DNA of 64,000 nucleotides from a virus. Taxonomy: Duplodnaviria > Caudoviricetes. The notes below the pieces were generated by a model. The model did not search any database and was not told where the DNA came from. It saw only the letters and a list, made by a program, of their open reading frames with translations. Each line of letters begins with the position of its first letter. Position 1 is the stretch's first letter. Made by a program: the position numbers and the translations under genes. Positions 4,934-22,461 of the stretch are shown here, one piece after another. The DNA lies in the IMG/VR virus record IMGVR_UViG_3300025679_000005; one strand, 5' to 3'.

Positions 4934-5216
4934 CATCCTTTCTGAAATAGAGTACCTGAAGCCCCAAGAGGGAGTTTCAGTGATCACCAACTACGGGACG
5001 GAAGAGCTTCGGAAGTTCGCCCGTGGCCTTATTGCCTGCCGTTGTCCCGAGTGTGAGTCCACTGAGGCTATGACAGTGGACAGCAACATCGAGCGCCGGC
5101 TCTGCGGTGGCTGTGGTGCTTGGTACCGCCCTGAGGACATGCTAGTGGTGGCCCTCATCCGAGCTTTCCAAGTGGGGGAAAGCGCCTCAGATGTGGTCCC
5201 AATCGCAAGCCACTAG
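4914..5216 (+). CDS. Zn-ribbon hypothetical protein
   Basis: CPEC and CGGC. Confidence 0.55.
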   Translation: MKTQADSILSEIEYLKPQEGVSVITNYGTEELRKFARGLIACRCPECESTEAMTVDSNIERRLCGGCGAWYRPEDMLVVALIRAFQVGESASDVVPIASH

Positions 5217-5843
5217 GATTTCACTGGTAGCTTCAGTGAATAGAACCACATGTGCAAAAGTTTCTTGTGTGGTATTGTCGTACATGTGCAGTCCCAAATG
5301 GATTGCGGTTTTTGAGCAAACCGGGCAGGATACCAATGGCATGTCCTCGTAAGTGCTCCCGGGCTCTAGTTCTCGCAGGTCCATGCTCCGACCCTAGCAC
5401 ATTCCAATGAAGTATCGTATTCGAATCAGTTGAAAGACTTACGACACTACTTCACGTATAGACGCTACCTGAGCTTTCTGGGCTATCCCCGTCCGTTTTT
5501 ACGTTTACAGCCTCAGACAATCACATCAATGATAGAAAAGGGCTTCATGTCCAAGGACTGCAAGGGCTTGGGCTCGGCCGACATCTTCGAGATGACCTGC
5601 TACATGAGCCAGCAACTGGGCTGGGACAAGGTCTCTGCGGCTATTTTCCCCAAGGACAGCCCGTGCCAAATCGCCTAAGGTATCTCCAAACCGATCAGCG
5701 ACACCTCACCCGTAACTTCCTCGGGTTCGGATTCTTCCTAGCCGGCCTAAGTTTATGGGTCCCTCAGCTATCGGCAATGCTGGCCTACGTCGTCGGGCTA
5801 TGGGCTTACTTCTGGACGGGAAACCGCTCAGAAATGCAGCGCC

Positions 5844-6137
5844 TCAAATCCTGAGGTCAATCCCCGTCTTAGCGATCTTGGACGTGTACGTCTCGATCGT
5901 GGAAGTTGTCCAGATCCAGTCGACTACTCCTGCCAACGGGACCAGTAAGGCTAGCAACGGGGGTATGGCGGTCTTGGCCCAAGGCAAGTTCGCTGCCACG
6001 CTGGCTACGAAAAACAGGAATGCAAAAACCAAAGTAGCTATTCCGTAGTGCTTGGGCAAGTTCTTGCGACGAATCGTGTAGGCCGCCCGTTGCGTGTGCA
6101 TTTCAGAGATCTCAAGCCATTCGGGGAGTTTGGTCAT
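5844..6137 (-). CDS. two-TM membrane protein; probable start ATG 6137, 4 nt after a CasPhi repeat copy
   Basis: Two hydrophobic segments; the longer track ORF reads through the repeat. Confidence 0.6.
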   Translation of the reverse strand: MTKLPEWLEISEMHTQRAAYTIRRKNLPKHYGIATLVFAFLFFVASVAANLPWAKTAIPPLLALLVPLAGVVDWIWTTSTIETYTSKIAKTGIDLRI

Positions 6138-6141
6138 TTCA

Positions 6142-6177
6142 GTCTCAGCGTACTGAGCAATAAAAAAGCTTTGTGGG
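6142..6177 (-). repeat. degenerate CasPhi repeat copy
   Basis: gtctcagcgtactgagcaat (20 nt exact), then diverges. Confidence 0.9.
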
Positions 6178-6184
6178 CTCGCGG

Positions 6185-7024
6185 TCATTTCACGAGCCTG
6201 AGGAAGCGGCTGCTCCCGTCATTAGGCCTAGCGTGCAAATATCTGGAAGTTGTGGCGATGTTCCGGTGGCCAAGCGAATTTGAAATTAGGGTCAGCGGGC
6301 AACCTGCGTCAAGTGAATGGGACGCATGAGCGTGCCTCAAGAGATGGGGCCAAAGCTTCAACCCAGCCTTTTTGCCAGTGTCCGTGACAATCCGTCGGGC
6401 ATCCCTGGCCGTGAGCTGCTTCCCACGGTAGGATTTGAAGACAGGTGCCTCATCGACTTCGTTATTGCGACGAAGTGTCCTCAGCTCGTCAGCGATCGTG
6501 CTCGGAAGCATGAGGGTTCGAGTTCGGGTGCCCTTCCCCTGTAGGGTGACACGGAAGTCATTGAGGTCTTTGAACCTGATTCTGACGGCCTCGGCGATTC
6601 GTGCCCCGGAGGCGTATAGGAACCGGATGAGGATCTTGTCTCGACCTAGGTCGGCGATTCCAATGAGGCCTCCCACAGCATCTTCCTCCAAGATCTTCTC
6701 ATTCAAGTTATCCGGGATTTTCGGAGTCCTGAGGATTCGGCCGACGTTGAAGACGAGGTACCCCGTCCGGTATCCAAAACTGAGGAGGCTTTTGATCGTG
6801 CTGATCTTCCTAGCGATCGTGGCCGGCTTCCCGTTGAGGGTCTCTGCCCAGGCCATTACCTGGGCCACAGTCGCCCCCTGGAGGCCGTCGGGCAGCTCCA
6901 TGAGGAAAGCCATGGCCACTGGCTTGTAAGCGATTACGGACGATAGGGGACGGCCGCTGAGCCACAGCTTCATCAGCTGTTCATCGGAGGTGGCTCCGGA
7001 GTGGTTTTCCGGTAGATGGTTCAT
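6185..7024 (-). CDS. XerC/D-like tyrosine recombinase
   Basis: LYASGARIAE (Arg), GKG (Lys), HLLRH, LGH, SRY catalytic motifs. Confidence 0.95.
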   Translation of the reverse strand: MNHLPENHSGATSDEQLMKLWLSGRPLSSVIAYKPVAMAFLMELPDGLQGATVAQVMAWAETLNGKPATIARKISTIKSLLSFGYRTGYLVFNVGRILRTPKIPDNLNEKILEEDAVGGLIGIADLGRDKILIRFLYASGARIAEAVRIRFKDLNDFRVTLQGKGTRTRTLMLPSTIADELRTLRRNNEVDEAPVFKSYRGKQLTARDARRIVTDTGKKAGLKLWPHLLRHAHASHSLDAGCPLTLISNSLGHRNIATTSRYLHARPNDGSSRFLRLVK

Positions 7025-7030
7025 TGGACT

Positions 7031-7066
7031 GTCTCAGCGTACTGAGCAATCAAAAGGCTTAGGCTG
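7031..7066 (-). repeat. degenerate CasPhi repeat copy 6 nt upstream of the recombinase ATG
   Basis: First 27 nt identical to the array repeat. Confidence 0.92.
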
Positions 7067-7327
7067 GTTTACCCCCGGAACGGTGACTTCGATGGGGGTG
7101 ATGCCGTTGTGTGGGACAACGAGGCAGCTCCACGGGTAGGTCTCTTTGTCGACACCTAAGGCCGTAGTGACTTTCACGATCCACATGTCGAGAAGGTGGC
7201 GGGAAGCCAGACCGCAGATGACGCCTGTCCCAGAGACCGGACCCATGGTGAACATCACTGGTTGGCCGTCTACGTAACAGGGTTTGACTTTGCCTTGGAG
7301 GTCGGTTTGCAGTTCGAAGTTGTACAT
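7034..7327 (-). CDS. hypothetical beta-rich protein lying between two CasPhi repeats
   Basis: ORF with its own class-2 promoter-like motif; stop codon falls inside the 7031 repeat. Confidence 0.6.
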   Translation of the reverse strand: MYNFELQTDLQGKVKPCYVDGQPVMFTMGPVSGTGVICGLASRHLLDMWIVKVTTALGVDKETYPWSCLVVPHNGITPIEVTVPGVNQPKPFDCSVR

Positions 7328-7377
7328 GATGAACCTAACGGCAGGGGGCGGCGGGACTTAAGCCCCTGAGGTGGAGG

Positions 7378-8148
7378 GTCTCAGCGTACTGAGCAATCAA
7401 AAGGCTTCGCAGGCTGGGTCTGTCGCGAGCTGGACCAATACGGTGACGTGCTTGTCTCAGCGAACTGAGCAATCAAAAGGTTTCGCAGGATCCAGAGCTA
7501 CCAGGCGCTACAACGGAAGTGGCATCAGTCTCAGCGTACTGAGCAATCAAAAGGTTTCGCAGGAGGCGGTAGTCCTTGATGCTATCGTCGGCAAAGTCTC
7601 GTCTCAGCGTACTGAGCAATCAAAAGGTTTCGCAGGGTCGGGGCGGCGGGGGCAGATTCATCAGACCAAGTACGTCTCAGCGTACTGAGCAATCAAAAGG
7701 TTTCGCAGGAGTGGCCCATAGACCTGGTTCCCTTGGGCGTCCCTCTTGTCTCAGCGTACTGAGCAATCAAAAGGTTTCGCAGGGCCAGGGGCCGGCGGGC
7801 CGTTGTACTGGCCCGGACGAGTCTCAGCGTACTGAGCAATCAAAAGGTTTCGCAGGTTCCTTAGTGGGACTCTTAGAGGATCCTATAAGTAAGAGTCTCA
7901 GCGTACTGAGCAATCAAAAGGTTTCGCAGGGTCGGGTGTTGGAGTCGATGAGGTTGGCTTAGCGTACGTCTCAGCGTACTGAGCAATCAAAAGGTTTCGC
8001 AGGCCCCGACTCCACGGGATCATGTTGGGGATCGATCCTGTCTCAGCGTACTGAGCAATCAAAAGGTTTCGCAGGGCGTCGTGTTCATCGATCACAACTA
8101 CAGGGATCCCCTGTCTCAGCGTACTGAGCAATCAAAAGGTTTCGCAGG
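7378..8148 (-). CRISPR. CRISPR array B (CasPhi): 11 repeats of 36 nt (CCTGCGAAACCTTTTGATTGCTCAGTACGCTGAGAC on minus strand), 10 spacers of 36-40 nt
   Basis: Repeats start at 7378, 7454, 7528, 7601, 7674, 7748, 7821, 7895, 7968, 8040, 8113; the two variant repeats (7378, 7454) mark the trailer end. Confidence 0.99.
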
Positions 8149-8239
8149 TCGCACGTCAGAAACAGTGAATTTTCAAAGACCTACCGAATGCTTTGCGAGC
8201 GGTTCGGTAAATTAGAGATCAGCAGGGGGTATTACACCG

Positions 8240-18874: not shown

Positions 18875-19351
18875 GTGACCACTTGAAAGGGTTTCGTCTC
18901 CCTCTCTGACCTCAGCGCCCTCCCACGAGTCACGTTCCGCGTGGAGTGACCACTTGAAAGGGTTTCGTCTCCCTCTCTGACCAAAGCTAAGTCCACCAAG
19001 GACCCCAAGAACATGTTCGTGACCACTTGAAAGGGTTTCGTCTCCCTCTCTGACGAGCGAATGCGTCCCCCTGCCTCTCGTGAGCAATTCACGTGACCAC
19101 TTGAAAGGGTTTCGTCTCCCTCTCTGACTCTCTTAGGGATTTGATCCCTGATTCGCGATTTTGCGTGACCACTTGAAAGGGTTTCGTCTCCCTCTCTGAC
19201 CTCGGCATCAACCGTCGGTACCGGCATTACAATGACAGTAGTGACCACTTGAAAGGGTTTCGTCTCCCTCTCTGACACCAAGGTTTCGGTTCTCAGCTAC
19301 CCACCTGGAGCCCTCGTGACCACTTGAAAGGGTTTCGTCTCCCTCTCTGAC
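18875..19351. CRISPR. orphan CRISPR array C: 7 identical 36-nt repeats (GTGACCACTTGAAAGGGTTTCGTCTCCCTCTCTGAC on plus strand), 6 spacers of 35-40 nt
   Basis: Repeats start at 18875, 18946, 19019, 19093, 19165, 19241, 19316; internal hairpin GAAAGGG/CCCTCTC; orientation unresolved. Confidence 0.98.
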
Positions 19352-19460
19352 GCGGTCCGTCAGGTTAGCGGCAATGAGGGTGTGGGAGGCTACGTAGTAT
19401 ACAGCCCCGTTGGTGGCTTTGACTTCGAAGGCTCTGAGGGCGGGGACGGTCGGCATGGTC

Positions 19461-20267
19461 TCAGTCTACACCAAAAACCTGGTAGTTCAGGTAGAACCCC
19501 TCGTAGGTGTAGAACTTCAGCAACCGCTCGACACGGATCGTCCGGTCATTGTCCGTGAGTACGTAGCAATCGTCTTCGTGGACTGCCACGATGACTACGG
19601 CACTGCTCCGACGCCTGTCCTTGGTCCGCCAGCGCTGGCCCTTCGCTGGCCCTGGGATCTGACCGCCAATAGGAGCGGATATGAAAATGATCTCGGGATC
19701 ACAATCGACTTTTGGTTCAGGCGGCTTGGGGTCCGGAACGATCCTTGATCCCGAGGTCGGTTCAGATCCCCCAGCACTCTTAGGGTATGCCTCATGGTAC
19801 AGTTCACCTAGGCCGATCGTCAAACGATCCATCAGGTGAGAAGCTTTGAGTTTCGCGCTATCTACGAGGATTTGCAGTATCGCGCTATCTACGAGGATTT
19901 GCAGTATCATACGTGCTCCAACGGTCAATTTCTGATGGGTCTTAAGGGTCGGCCAACGTCTTTCGACGCAGTACCGGCAGAGGCAGCAGCTGCCGTCGCA
20001 TTCGACCTTCCCACAAGTCTCACAGGGGTCAGGCGGGATCGGACAGTCTTCGCAAAAGACAATGCAGCCAGCCAATGTCGAGGCTGTTCTTGATGCCCAA
20101 GCATTCGGGACAGGATTCGTTTTCGTTGTCGAAGGTGTATAGGCCGCCGTCACAGCGATAAACGCCGTCTGGGAGGGGCACAGGCTCGGTGTAACCCCAT
20201 CCGACGTAGTGAGCAGCCCCAGTGCACCGAAGGGTAACGTAGGGCTGGGAGCTGTAGTCACAGCCAT
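19461..20267 (-). CDS. hypothetical Cys-rich/KOW-like protein (true start probably downstream, near 20091)
   Basis: ORF track; contains a 27-bp in-frame tandem duplication. Confidence 0.5.
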   Translation of the reverse strand: MAVTTAPSPTLPFGALGLLTTSDGVTPSLCPSQTAFIAVTAAYTPSTTKTNPVPNAWASRTASTLAGCIVFCEDCPIPPDPCETCGKVECDGSCCLCRYCVERRWPTLKTHQKLTVGARMILQILVDSAILQILVDSAKLKASHLMDRLTIGLGELYHEAYPKSAGGSEPTSGSRIVPDPKPPEPKVDCDPEIIFISAPIGGQIPGPAKGQRWRTKDRRRSSAVVIVAVHEDDCYVLTDNDRTIRVERLLKFYTYEGFYLNYQVFGVD

Positions 20268-20290
20268 GAACGGGGTCGAGTTCGGCCATG

Positions 20291-20530
20291 TCAGTTCATG
20301 CTCTCTGGAGTGAGGATCTCAGTGACGTAGGAAGTAACCGTGCATTCGGCTCCGAACCATATGATGAGAACGGGCATACCCACCCTAATCTCCGTCAAGG
20401 ATTCGTAGGTCTTCCAGATGCCATCAGACCCTGTCCTAGATGTAGGTTCCAGGGCGCCGTGAAGCCGGCGAACACACTTACCCCCGGGGTCCACTTCGTA
20501 GGCTGACCCAGACTCAGTTTTGAAAACCAT
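20291..20530 (-). CDS. small phage hypothetical protein
   Basis: FKTESGSAYEVD and TVTSYV pattern common in phage small proteins. Confidence 0.65.
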   Translation of the reverse strand: MVFKTESGSAYEVDPGGKCVRRLHGALEPTSRTGSDGIWKTYESLTEIRVGMPVLIIWFGAECTVTSYVTEILTPESMN

Positions 20531-21083
20531 TAGACGATGGGCTCCGATAGATAATCCAAACGAGACTTTGACTCAAACGTATACCAAGTTGGAGGGATTG
20601 CGTCGAAGCCCCTCAGGGCTCAGGATACTGGGTGGGGTCGATGACAGTGCCAGTAGAAGTGTTGATGAACATCAGAGCTGGCTAGGTTTCATGACCACAT
20701 CTACACCCTTGATGTTACTGGGCATTGCCTTGGCGGCAGAGAGCAGACCTTCTGTCGGCTTTCCCATAACTTTGATGAGGACGTAGTAACTACCAGCTTC
20801 GTTTCTCTCAATGAGGACCGGGCCCCAAATTGAGGGTTCCCACAACTTTACAACCTCGATCTTGGCATCGTTCGCTTGCTGCCAAGAAGCCGGTTGGCCC
20901 TGGGCCATGAACTTCTCGAACTTCTCGATATCGAAGAAGAACTTGGGCCATCGGAGGATGTACTTCCAGGAGACATTAGACTTCTGGAAGGCTAGGACGA
21001 GAACGCCTAGGAGGTATCCGGCAATCACCAGGTACAGGGCGTGGTGCCAAAGAGCTGTGTACAGAGGGGAAGAGTGCATGGGT

Positions 21084-21359
21084 CTAGAAGGATACCGCAG
21101 TGAGGGCCGCTACCACCTTATTCAGGAAATACCGGAACACTGCCGGCTGAATGGCTGGATGTGGGGCGCTTCGACCGCCGATCCAACGTTCGAAGCTGGG
21201 GCGGGACAAGCAGAAGTACTCGCACACTTCTGCCACGTCGAGACCTAGGAGGATGATGGACCTGGGGACCAACGCCTCGAAACGACCTTCACAGGCGTCG
21301 TCCTCCTCAAGGGCCGAGGCCAAGTCGTCCTTGAGCTTGGTCAGTGCTTCACGGTTCAT
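21084..21359 (-). CDS. XRE-like HTH protein
   Basis: LDVAEVCEYFCLSRPSFERWIGGRSAPHP. Confidence 0.65.
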   Translation of the reverse strand: MNREALTKLKDDLASALEEDDACEGRFEALVPRSIILLGLDVAEVCEYFCLSRPSFERWIGGRSAPHPAIQPAVFRYFLNKVVAALTAVSF

Positions 21360-21649
21360 GGTCGATCCTGTTCTGGAATTCTGGGCTGATCATTAGTTCT
21401 GAACGACCTTGCTGATGTCCACCACGAACGGATGGGACACTCGACGGCCATCCCTGTATTCGGTCACGATTACCGGTAAGAACCCCTGTGTCCATTTCTT
21501 CTGGAAGACTAACTGTGAGACACAGAAGTTGGCAGCCTCTTGAGGTGAAGCAATACCCCCCAGCTCTTCTTTCGGGACCCTAATGGATACAGGATCACCA
21601 CTTTGAGAATCCTTCATGGTGATCTCTACGTTATCTATGCCTGGTGTGT

Positions 21650-21967
21650 TCACGGGAAGCGCTTTCGGTATGCCAGGCCTAGACGATAATAGGCGGACAA
21701 GCCTCGTATATTGAATGTGACGGGTTTGCCGTCAAAGCCTAAGATGAACGCATCCGCCTCGTGCCAGCTCATCAAGCCTCTGACCTCAACGGCAAGGGGT
21801 GTGGGGCGAAAGGAGGCTACGGCACAGCCTAATGGGCAATGACATCCAGAGTCCTTGGCGCTGACTTGAACTCCCTTGAAGAGGCCAAGAGTGGTCTTGT
21901 CAGCGATCTTTGAGGCAATCTTGCGAAAGCGCTCGTTCTTTGGCCAGGCCATCACATACTGAGACAT
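21650..21967 (-). CDS. paralog family P2 protein
   Basis: CHCPLGCAV..AFILGFDG..LGLAYRKRF. Confidence 0.7.
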   Translation of the reverse strand: MSQYVMAWPKNERFRKIASKIADKTTLGLFKGVQVSAKDSGCHCPLGCAVASFRPTPLAVEVRGLMSWHEADAFILGFDGKPVTFNIRGLSAYYRLGLAYRKRFP

Positions 21968-22461
21968 GGTCGATCCTACACCGAAACTAGATCGTCACGA
22001 GGCGGGCCAGCAGCTGCATCCACGTTGGGTAGCCGGATCGGTTACGCCCGTCTCCGTACACAGCCCAGGTCATCTCGTCAAGTAGGGTCTTGCCCAGGAT
22101 CAGACGAAGCAGGAACAGCTTCAGTACCTTGAAGCGTATCTCGCCAGGGTCCCGTCGAAGCCGGTTAGCTTCGCTGATGGGAATGGCTACTTTGGGCTCG
22201 TCCCAGTTAGGGTCAATGCTCATGTGAACCACTCCCGTAGACGCTGTCCGATGTCAGTCATCTCACTGAGGACGTTGCTGACCACAGAGACCACAATATT
22301 GTAAGCGGCCCCTACCGGCCAGAACACTGTGACCACGAAAACAGCGAAGTTGTCGAGGCCGTCACTGACATCGGGCATCATACAGAAAGAGGGCTGTACG
22401 AACCCTATGACAATGGGAGTGATCACAAGCCCGATCACATAGAGGATTACCAGGAAGATTA

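Follow-up and report, generated by a model that had tools for sequence, protein, structure and literature searches.

Solitary CRISPR repeats have so far been described either as regulators that act in trans on cas or toxin promoters or as decoys aimed at the Cas proteins of a host. The delocalized or atypical crRNAs of CRISPR-associated transposons, which consist of a truncated repeat and a special-purpose guide encoded downstream of the array, guide the homing of Tn7-like transposons to a chromosomal site. In Csy4 insulators a repeat within an mRNA serves as the substrate of a Cas RNase. The CreR and CreA crRNA-like RNAs originate from degenerate mini-arrays, and a survey of standalone repeat-like elements reported that type V-A loci often have such a solitary element beside cas12a (PMC10120712; 10.1101/2023.03.10.532045). 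Cas12j goes unmentioned in that survey, and the only 'repeat-like' paper retrieved by a literature search for Cas12j with crRNA-like regulatory RNAs concerns tracrRNA reprogramming. Further cases are the RNA anti-CRISPRs that consist of solitary repeat units (Racr; PMC10651486) and the Cracr RNAs of viruses (10.1101/2024.10.29.618823). Engineered Cas12a repeats have been placed in mRNAs (PMC9943656), whereas no description of a natural mRNA repeat acted on by a type V effector was found in the literature searched. Here we describe a phage whose own type V repeat is located inside its predicted messenger RNAs, where cistrons adjoin; in one relative the solitary repeat is in frame within the coding sequence of a gene.

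The window, i.e. the whole stretch of DNA that was analysed (64,000 nucleotides), derives from a huge peat phage, and the identical CasΦ protein (P0001) is encoded on a contig of 464-466 kb. The casΦ gene, the CRISPR array, three downstream genes and the repeats are all on the minus strand, in the order casΦ, array, 97-aa gene, repeat copy J1, recombinase, repeat copy J2, membrane-protein gene:

8240-10525, minus strand: casΦ (cas12j), 761 aa, E=2e-135 to CasΦ-2 (7LYS), RuvC triad intact
8233-8239, minus strand: promoter-type motif CGGTGTA at the casΦ stop codon, heading the array leader
7378-8148, minus strand: CRISPR array of 11 repeats (36 nt) and 10 spacers, spacing 72-76 nt
7378-7413, minus strand: R11, the last array repeat, with an A-to-G variant common to J1, J2 and the copy at 61371
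7034-7327, minus strand: 97-aa gene, its TGA stop (7036-7034) in the 3' arm of the J1 hairpin
7031-7063, minus strand: J1 repeat copy, 33/36 positions, 3-nt deletion in the 5' half, handle exact
6185-7024, minus strand: Xer-like tyrosine recombinase, 279 aa, Pfam Phage_integrase, 8e-28
6132-6192, minus strand: J2 insertion, i.e. the repeat copy and a 10-nt direct duplication, TGAAATGACC, at 6183-6192 and 6132-6141
6142-6177, minus strand: J2 repeat copy, starting 7 nt past the recombinase stop and ending 4 nt before the ATG at 6137
5844-6137, minus strand: membrane-protein gene, 97 aa from the native ATG, 114 aa from an ATG at 6188

The three RuvC acidic motifs of CasΦ-2 (7LYS) all align (DLG, EDLN, ADL). 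The Cas1 family is absent from the called genes up to 10 kb on either side of the casΦ locus, in line with the original prediction, in which no cas1 had been seen. By its effector with an intact RuvC triad, its array and the absence of the Cas1 family within 10 kb, the locus is a type V-J CRISPR-CasΦ system. No Rfam family matched at positions 5,000-15,000 of the window. J1 is located 347 nt downstream of the array and J2 a further 889 nt away. The idea that they are ordinary degenerate repeats of the array trailer was discarded, as they are off the 72-76 nt period and conserved protein genes intervene. The tight spacing that had been claimed for both copies could be reproduced from the sequence: J1 ends 6 nt before the recombinase ATG (7024), and J2 is separated by 7 nt from the recombinase stop on one side and by 4 nt from the next ATG on the other. 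The stop codon of the 97-aa gene, in the J1 hairpin, precedes the recombinase ATG by 9 nt. Remnants of spacer 10 in the flanks of J1 and J2, which would indicate that whole spacer-repeat units had been copied, were rejected (P=0.31 and 0.12 against shuffled spacers, local alignment).

The same three genes occur without repeats in relatives of the phage. In L009, L010/L011 and L012 the order 97-aa homologue, recombinase, membrane protein is unchanged and no copy of the handle is present; the backbone is syntenic with that of L010, which carries other genes in place of casΦ and the array. The junctions in L009 consist of a 4-nt gap ('TGA gtcc GTG') and an ATGA overlap. Since the three repeat-free relatives share the gene order, the repeats must have entered a pre-existing operon. 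Judging from these alignments, the phage's own CasΦ repeat was inserted secondarily at both junctions of an ancestral, translationally coupled operon, which gave rise to J1 and J2. J1 is part of an insertion of ~56-58 nt that is missing from the relatives (alignment to L009), with a flanking duplication of 4 nt at most. The last 10 codons of the 97-aa gene are read from J1, and the C-terminal tail of the protein is ~15 aa longer than in the L009 and L010 homologues, which stop 7 residues past a conserved PH/QH motif. (A word search for homologues of this protein returned only itself; the relatives came from tblastn on the fetched loci.) With its 51 nt the J2 insert does not shift the reading frame, and neither the old ATGA overlap nor the native ATG (6137) has been lost. 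The ATG at 6188 overlaps the recombinase stop, and the membrane-protein homologues of L009 and L010 begin where the second ATG lies. Unitigs from a peat metagenome (one run, which may be the source sample of the window) span J2 with zero differences and show even depth at J1.

These comparisons bear directly on the proposal in the original prediction that whole genes are captured between repeats, with the tyrosine recombinase using the repeats as recombination sites of an integron-like platform. The likeness is superficial: genes in one direction without a canonical promoter motif, hairpin repeats between them, and a tyrosine recombinase. However, invariant gene order without repeats in relatives, which the prediction itself had named as refuting gene capture, is what L009, L010/L011 and L012 display, tight junctions included. 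Moreover, the integron-integrase model TIGR02249 scores the recombinase at 63.6 bits against a cut-off of 265, and the best NCBIfam matches are XerA, XerC and XerD, all below cut-off. Homologues at 86% (L009), 72% and 61% identity were found, with the start position kept, and the gene is conserved also in phages without a nearby casΦ. Searches for close relatives in public phage records (megablast, tblastn) and IMG/VR yielded nothing, or recombinases at 35-37% identity only. By sequence, the recombinase is a conserved Xer-like gene of this phage group and not an IntI. Furthermore, attC and Xer core sites are far larger than the 5-bp stem and 4-nt loop of the repeat, and in other CasΦ loci no recombinase is present among the genes between the array and the solitary repeat. 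We thus consider an integron-like platform highly improbable, and the attractive idea that the array captures genes is corrected here as wrong.

The 21-nt hairpin half of the repeat occurs 18 times in the window at up to 3 mismatches, as compared to 0 times in 100 shuffles. Outside the array, the two halves of the repeat have fared differently, as had been noticed before: the hairpin half is unchanged in J1 and differs at one position in J2, whereas the 5' halves are degenerate. The handle half (-1 to -21) shows 1 change in 63 positions and the 5' half 9 in 45 (Fisher p=0.0015); with four handle-only units included, the count for the handle is 1 in 147. Since the third codon positions of the adjacent recombinase have diverged by 43% from those of L009, the contrast points to selection on CasΦ binding as the force that maintains the handle half. 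In the structure of Cas12j3 the contacts with the handle are made at C-1, A-2, G-17 and U-18, within -1 to -18 (PMC8298400). All four are included in the conserved block and, like the 5-bp stem, they are kept in J1, J2 and all five other solitary copies. The window contains, in addition to J1 and J2:

10609-10666, plus strand: two handle-only units, driven by the casΦ promoter, which is palindromic, through its plus-strand half
14435-14495, minus strand: two handle-only units, each ~7 nt or more downstream of a GGTGTA-type motif
61371-61406, minus strand: solitary repeat (33/36) ahead of a gene and in sense to it, at a distance of 51 kb from casΦ

A solitary repeat on the same strand, 0.3-2.3 kb past the array, was found in six of the eight CasΦ loci (the window, L004, L007, L013, L014 and L015), and in five of these six it is located inside or at genes that run in the same direction. 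Solitary copies are missing within 10 kb in the other two loci, L006 and L008. The loci that share this layout are 31-58% identical, and each solitary copy matches the array repeat of its own locus, changing with it between lineages. In L013 the repeat ends 2 nt before an ATG, in L007 it abuts a stop codon and is itself 20 nt ahead of an ATG, and in L014 it lies in frame within a dam-like methylase gene. The L013 copy has a G-C stem pair changed to G-U, so that pairing is preserved in the sense-strand RNA only.

A part of this pattern could arise without function. It is possible, though we think it rather doubtful, that the solitary copies are tolerated by-products, i.e. repeat units copied from the nearby array trailer, of which those that spare genes survive. 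Reading frames and coupling signals are left intact by both inserts, and the downstream copies all have the direct orientation expected of local duplication. Two of the eight loci lack a solitary copy, and no targets or regulatory partners were found for the pseudo-guides. Position and orientation would also follow from a local tendency of the array to spawn downstream copies, if those that disrupt genes were selected against. On the other hand, the handle is ~12-fold better conserved than the 5' half of the same units (p=0.0015), although the changes in the 5' half point to an age close to that of the divergence from L009. If gene conversion from the array were at work, it would even out the entire repeat and not one half, and the handle-only units just past promoter motifs suggest that the phage makes use of solitary handles.

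An unlikely alternative is that the copies act in trans as guides. Each handle would make a crRNA from the first ~20 nt of the downstream gene, and co-infecting relatives or ancestral alleles free of the insert could be cut (exclusion) or repaired with the insert-bearing genome as template (homing); the home copy would be safe, with the repeat end GAC standing where the PAM would be. When the 51-nt insert at J2 is removed, the ancestral junction so reconstructed has TCG directly ahead of a stretch that matches the J2 pseudo-guide perfectly. This triplet agrees with the TBN PAM that has been reported for Cas12j (PMC11641405), and the 10-nt duplication equals the 9-11-nt overhang left by Cas12j3 (PMC8298400), as would be expected from a fragment pasted into a filled-in cut. 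The J2 pseudo-guide also matches its own 10-nt duplicate (6183-6192), with TCG directly before it, in a search of 64 kb of the ~464-kb genome. At J1, however, CGA or CTG would stand at the equivalent PAM positions, neither of them T-rich, and the duplication does not exceed 4 nt; in the actual L009 junction, mismatches to both pseudo-guides occur as early as the first 9 nt, and the L014 unit is inside a gene. None of the 94 spacers from five arrays gave a credible protospacer from which to read a PAM when compared with all fetched loci. J2's own duplicate excepted, the pseudo-guides and all array spacers matched nothing in the window above chance, and partner sites for the solitary-copy pseudo-guides amounted to chance-level prefix matches in every locus. 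Very unlikely is the more specific scenario of a guide inserted at its own PAM-flanked target, with insert-free genomes being cut and either excluded or repaired from an insert-bearing phage, resulting in a homing-like spread; such an event would have left the 10-nt duplication at J2 as its scar.

The promoter-type motif GGTGTA is present 58 times in the window and precedes an ATG by 8-14 nt in 23 cases (ORFs of at least 50 aa), as compared to 0-2 such cases for each of six control hexamers. The motif is found ahead of neither the recombinase nor the membrane-protein gene. The promoter motif originally ascribed to the 97-aa gene holds in a degenerate form (TAGGTT, 4 nt before the ATG), the canonical GGTGTA being absent. 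No terminator-like site was detected on the minus strand between 5,850 and 7,378. The repeat hairpin was rejected as an intrinsic terminator, as its stem has 5 bp and a run of T is missing; within the array a single terminator-like call was made, at a repeat with a chance T-rich spacer behind it.

Considering the anatomy, the direction of insertion, the selective conservation of the handle and the recurrence in other CasΦ loci together, we tentatively favour J1 and J2 as putative cis-acting sites for CasΦ binding or processing in the operon mRNA, a reading that we hold to be about as probable as not, if slightly less. The other proposal of the original prediction, in which CasΦ would act on these mRNA leaders, thus gains strength from the handle conservation, from the lack of a canonical promoter motif ahead of the recombinase and membrane-protein genes and from the recurrence. 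We infer the mechanism, including binding, cleavage and the sign of the effect at J1 and J2, from the sequence; the one public run that contains the stretch is a DNA run. The operon RNA would start either from the promoter of the array or from the weak motif ahead of the 97-aa gene, and two CasΦ handles would be part of it. CasΦ may bind both and probably cut just upstream, in the manner of pre-crRNA, which in Cas12j1 and Cas12j2 is processed by the RuvC site (PMC8298400). Such a cut would separate the cistrons and break translational coupling, while CasΦ, staying on the new 5' end 4-6 nt from the start codon, would most likely block initiation. The output of recombinase and membrane protein would thereby be tied to the level of free CasΦ, and selection would keep just the 3' part of each copy, i.e. 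the crRNA handle held by CasΦ. Expression free of CasΦ is conceivable as well, because both insertions keep the reading frames open and the coupling signals in place. The 5' half of J2 is degenerate, and cutting of such a repeat by CasΦ is putative.

Should CasΦ act at these sites, a DNA-targeting effector would have a second role for ordinary phage genes, as a factor that processes mRNA or controls translation in a sequence-specific manner, and gene regulation in uncultivated huge phages would gain a simple entry point that can be tested. The closest natural systems each differ in part. As with CreR and CreA, the solitary or paired repeats are outside the array and retain the part bound by Cas, and the units at 10609 and 14435, which are handle-only and promoter-driven, resemble this class. 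CreR and CreA, however, act in trans by a short guide that partly pairs with a PAM-flanked promoter, whereas the 'guide' of J1 and J2 consists of the start of the very gene that follows, and the PAM is absent at the home site. Racr and Cracr are likewise phage-encoded solitary repeats, and load a Cas protein. They mimic host repeats to disable the host Cas, whereas the copies in the window match the phage's own array. A role of J1 and J2 as RNA anti-CRISPRs (Racr/SRU) was rejected on the grounds that the cognate effector and array are phage-encoded, 350-1,240 nt upstream. Unlike the delocalized crRNAs of transposons, the units are located within mRNAs, and transposition genes are absent here. 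Integrons share the one-direction gene run without canonical promoter motif, the repeated hairpin and the tyrosine recombinase, but differ in recombinase type, site structure (attC being compared by size alone, with the 36-nt repeat and its 5-bp stem) and cassette variability. The closest analogue of how J1 and J2 might work is provided by the engineered Cas12a and Csy4 repeats, which change transcript stability or separate cistrons. Those devices are synthetic whereas J1 and J2 are natural, and, if the proposed role is true, the phage would harbour a natural counterpart of these RNA-processing devices.

The effector encoded in the window matches CasΦ-2 (7LYS) with E=2e-135 and all three RuvC acidic motifs aligned, and is by this alignment a true CasΦ. 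The gene, its array and the operon beyond the array are organized as follows.

CasΦ locus and downstream operon
8240-10525, minus strand: casΦ gene (CasΦ-2 match)
minus strand: array leader, with a CGGTGTA motif at its head overlapping the casΦ stop
7378-8148, minus strand: CRISPR array, 11 repeats of 36 nt
7327-7034, minus strand: 97-aa ORF
7063-7031, minus strand: repeat copy at the first junction (J1)
7024-6185, minus strand: tyrosine recombinase, 279 aa
6177-6142, minus strand: repeat copy at the second junction (J2)
6137-5844, minus strand: small membrane-protein gene

The spacings given in the original prediction are exact: J1 ends 6 nt before the recombinase ATG, and J2 starts 7 nt past the recombinase stop and ends 4 nt before the next ATG. 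The 97-aa ORF enters J1, and its TGA stop is located inside the 3' arm of the J1 hairpin, 9 nt 5' of the recombinase ATG. At J2, the recombinase stop shares bases (ATGA) with an ATG in the membrane-protein reading frame, and a start at this ATG would translate the repeat and lengthen the N-terminus of the membrane protein by 17 codons. The J2 context is unchanged in the unitigs of one peat metagenome run, possibly the source sample of the window itself. Codons 6-11 of the recombinase gene (6990-7010, minus strand) make a small hairpin (CCGGA...TCCGG), and its first ~45 nt are near-identical to those of the closest relative (L009), versus 78% identity across the whole gene.

The hexamer GGTGTA occurs 58 times, and 23 of its copies have an ORF of at least 50 aa starting with an ATG 8-14 nt on; for six control hexamers this number was 0-2. 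Extended by four more bases, it behaves in this phage like a signal for gene starts. The spacing would fit a -10-like element for leaderless or nearly leaderless mRNAs, and the presence of the motif ahead of at least 23 genes suggests that leaderless-type promoters are widespread. It is also present in three other CasΦ loci (L004, L013 and L014) and in two relatives carrying a homologous recombinase (L010 and L012). GGTGTA stands at the head of the array leader, of casΦ and of both promoter-driven units of the handle (the 3' 21-nt hairpin half of the repeat, predicted to be bound by CasΦ), in which the RNA would start a few bases 5' of the handle. It is absent ahead of the recombinase and membrane-protein genes. 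For the 97-aa gene, to which the original prediction gave a promoter motif of its own, there is a degenerate version but not the full motif. Terminator-like sites were not found on the minus strand from the array to the operon end. On this basis, J1 and J2 are probably internal to an RNA that begins either with the array or with the 97-aa gene.

Xer-like proteins of ~278 aa, encoded on long phage-like contigs, form a large and conserved family that includes the recombinase. Three relatives were compared, with recombinases that are 86% (L009, where the comparison is confined to a 1.7-kb contig), 72% (L010/L011, contigs of 189 and 360 kb) and 61% (L012) identical to that of the window. A 97-aa homologue lies 5' and a membrane-protein homologue 3' of the recombinase in all three, with one additional small gene separating the former from the recombinase in L010. 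Handle copies were absent from these relatives in a search tolerating 5 errors in 24 nt. The L009 genes are 4 nt apart, from stop to start, at the first junction and overlap by ATGA at the second. The pairwise alignment with L009 (A1) contains two clean inserts, both in the window: one of ~56-58 nt at J1, and one of 51 nt at J2, made up of the repeat unit and a 10-nt direct duplication of TGAAATGACC on its two sides. The window backbone is syntenic with L010 (199-aa gene, AAA_33, 292-aa gene ... recombinase ... HU-like gene), where a methylase and four small genes take the position of casΦ and the array. One gain per junction on the branch of the window is far more parsimonious than three precise losses, and the three genes are thus old neighbours and the repeats newcomers. 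It had been proposed that whole genes are captured between repeats in an integron-like fashion; this is contradicted by the occurrence of the same three genes, without repeats, in all three relatives compared, and the integron-integrase model gives the recombinase 64 bits against a cut-off of 265.

An A-to-G variant of the last array repeat is common to J1, J2 and a further copy at 61371, and these copies were, as their sequences indicate, formerly full repeats. Counted against the last array repeat, the three copies carry changes at 9/45 positions in the 5' part (15 positions each) and at 1/63 in the 3' part (21 positions each; Fisher p=0.0015), which bears out the claim that the hairpin half is kept while the other half decays. 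With four handle-only units added, the handle count becomes 1/147. Since the recombinase gene, 78% identical to that of L009 overall, is only 57% identical at third codon positions, the ~20% decay of the 5' halves is what one would expect for an old unconstrained insert. The handle, by these counts, is clearly constrained. The conserved block includes C-1, A-2, G-17 and U-18, the positions through which the crRNA handle is held in the structure of Cas12j3 (PMC8298400). Gene conversion from the array was rejected as a cause of the conservation, since it would not end midway through the repeat. Junction repeats that arose as a neutral by-product, without function, would account for the position and orientation of the copies but not for the conservation of half a repeat, and we regard such an origin as rather unlikely.

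The hairpin half is present in 18 copies in the window, which covers 64 kb of the ~464-kb genome, and in none of 100 shuffles. Outside the array, J1 and J2 it is found in three more places.

Further handle copies in the window
10609 and 10646, plus strand: two handle-only units
14475 and 14435, minus strand: two handle-only units
61371: solitary copy, 33/36 positions

The region 10560-10670, 5' of casΦ, contains a palindrome with two divergent CGGTGTA motifs, of which the plus-strand motif drives the two handle units, which are only ~11-16 nt apart and run antisense to a predicted 62-aa ORF; neither of their guides gave a target. The order in 14400-14520 (minus strand) is promoter motif, handle, 19-nt "spacer", second handle and third promoter motif, the latter 10 nt 5' of the ATG of a gene. 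The "spacer" is a GGTGTA promoter motif in its own right, and the first guide would begin with the phage's own promoter consensus.

Seven other CasΦ loci, with effectors 31-58% identical to that of the window, were each searched with their own handle. Counting the window, six of the eight loci have a same-strand solitary repeat 0.3-2.3 kb past the array end.

Solitary repeats past the array in CasΦ loci
Window: J1 and J2
L004: 2.3 kb past the array, genes between on the opposite strand
L007: past four genes of the same direction; the TGA stop of the preceding gene abuts the handle, next ATG 20 nt past it
L013: in the final codons of a gene, with its end 2 nt 5' of the next ATG
L014, 13193-13300: full 36-nt repeat plus one extra A, in frame within a dam-like methylase gene (5' coding region)
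L015: past two genes of the same direction

No solitary handle was found within reach in L006 and L008. In the L013 copy one G-C stem pair has become G-U, and pairing is kept in the sense RNA only. The L014 methylase lies after a receiver-domain gene; its in-frame repeat encodes ~12 linker residues between the KWAGGK and EPFxGGG motifs. Since the enclosed genes vary by locus, the conserved trait is the presence of a repeat within downstream transcripts, and not any given cargo. The exact handle of the window is also found as a solitary unit on three short metagenome contigs, before ORFs in L002 and L003 and, in L001, in sense at 1163-1183 within a cluster of phage tRNA genes, 90 nt 5' of tRNA-Thr. 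Promoter-motif-driven handles are located 5' of casΦ in L007 and L014. L015 has two further handle copies (9961-9981 and 11369-11389), one of which lies 19 nt 5' of the casΦ ATG and the other, carrying a stem-breaking change, inside the casΦ coding region. In L013, Cas3-like and Cse2-like proteins are encoded at 19305-22358, ~6 kb beyond the array and 7 kb past casΦ, so that several CRISPR systems occur together in some of these phages. The L004 array (12382-13905) has two repeat variants in blocks (loop GTGC versus GTAC; 5' half GGCAACC versus GGCGATC), a pattern that suggests array recombination or fusion.

After processing, Cas12j retains the handle and the guide that follows it. The pre-crRNA of Cas12j1 and Cas12j2 is processed by the RuvC site (PMC8298400), and cleavage by Cas12j leaves a 5' phosphate on the products (PMC11797020). 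Given this pre-crRNA processing, the operon RNA, which would carry a handle at both junctions, is a plausible CasΦ substrate. A cut 5' of the handle would uncouple the cistrons, and the bound CasΦ would cover the next 18-20 nt, the start codon included at both J1 and J2. The gene starts at J1 and J2 lack a Shine-Dalgarno sequence to recruit ribosomes independently. Since the start codons would be covered and no Shine-Dalgarno is present, our preferred reading is that CasΦ represses the recombinase and the membrane protein or sets their timing; with CasΦ unbound, the retained coupling signals would permit expression. The effect might also have the opposite sign, with CasΦ protecting the 5' end of the RNA.

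The handle could instead turn the downstream sequence into a guide against genomes without the insert. A J2 junction without insert would be a perfect target after TCG, in line with the TBN PAM reported for Cas12j (PMC11641405) if the window's CasΦ shares that PAM; none of 94 spacers from five arrays had a credible protospacer in the loci compared. The 10-nt duplication at J2 equals the 9-11-nt overhang of Cas12j3 cuts, but J1 does not suit such a model, and the sequences just 3' of solitary handles have no partners beyond chance in any locus searched; we consider it improbable.

The literature searched, which includes few subscription journals, contains no account of standalone or solitary Cas12j repeats, and the sole co-occurrence of Cas12j with "repeat-like" concerns tracrRNA reprogramming. 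Three kinds of described element come closest. The first are crRNA-like regulators encoded by degenerate mini-arrays, among them type V-A units next to cas12a (PMC10120712), but these have a trans target, whereas none was found for the junction repeats of the window. Phages deploy solitary repeats against host Cas proteins (PMC10651486; 10.1101/2024.10.29.618823), whereas the copies in the window match the phage's own effector. Finally, repeats have been engineered into mRNAs (PMC9943656); those are synthetic, whereas the junction repeats described here are natural.
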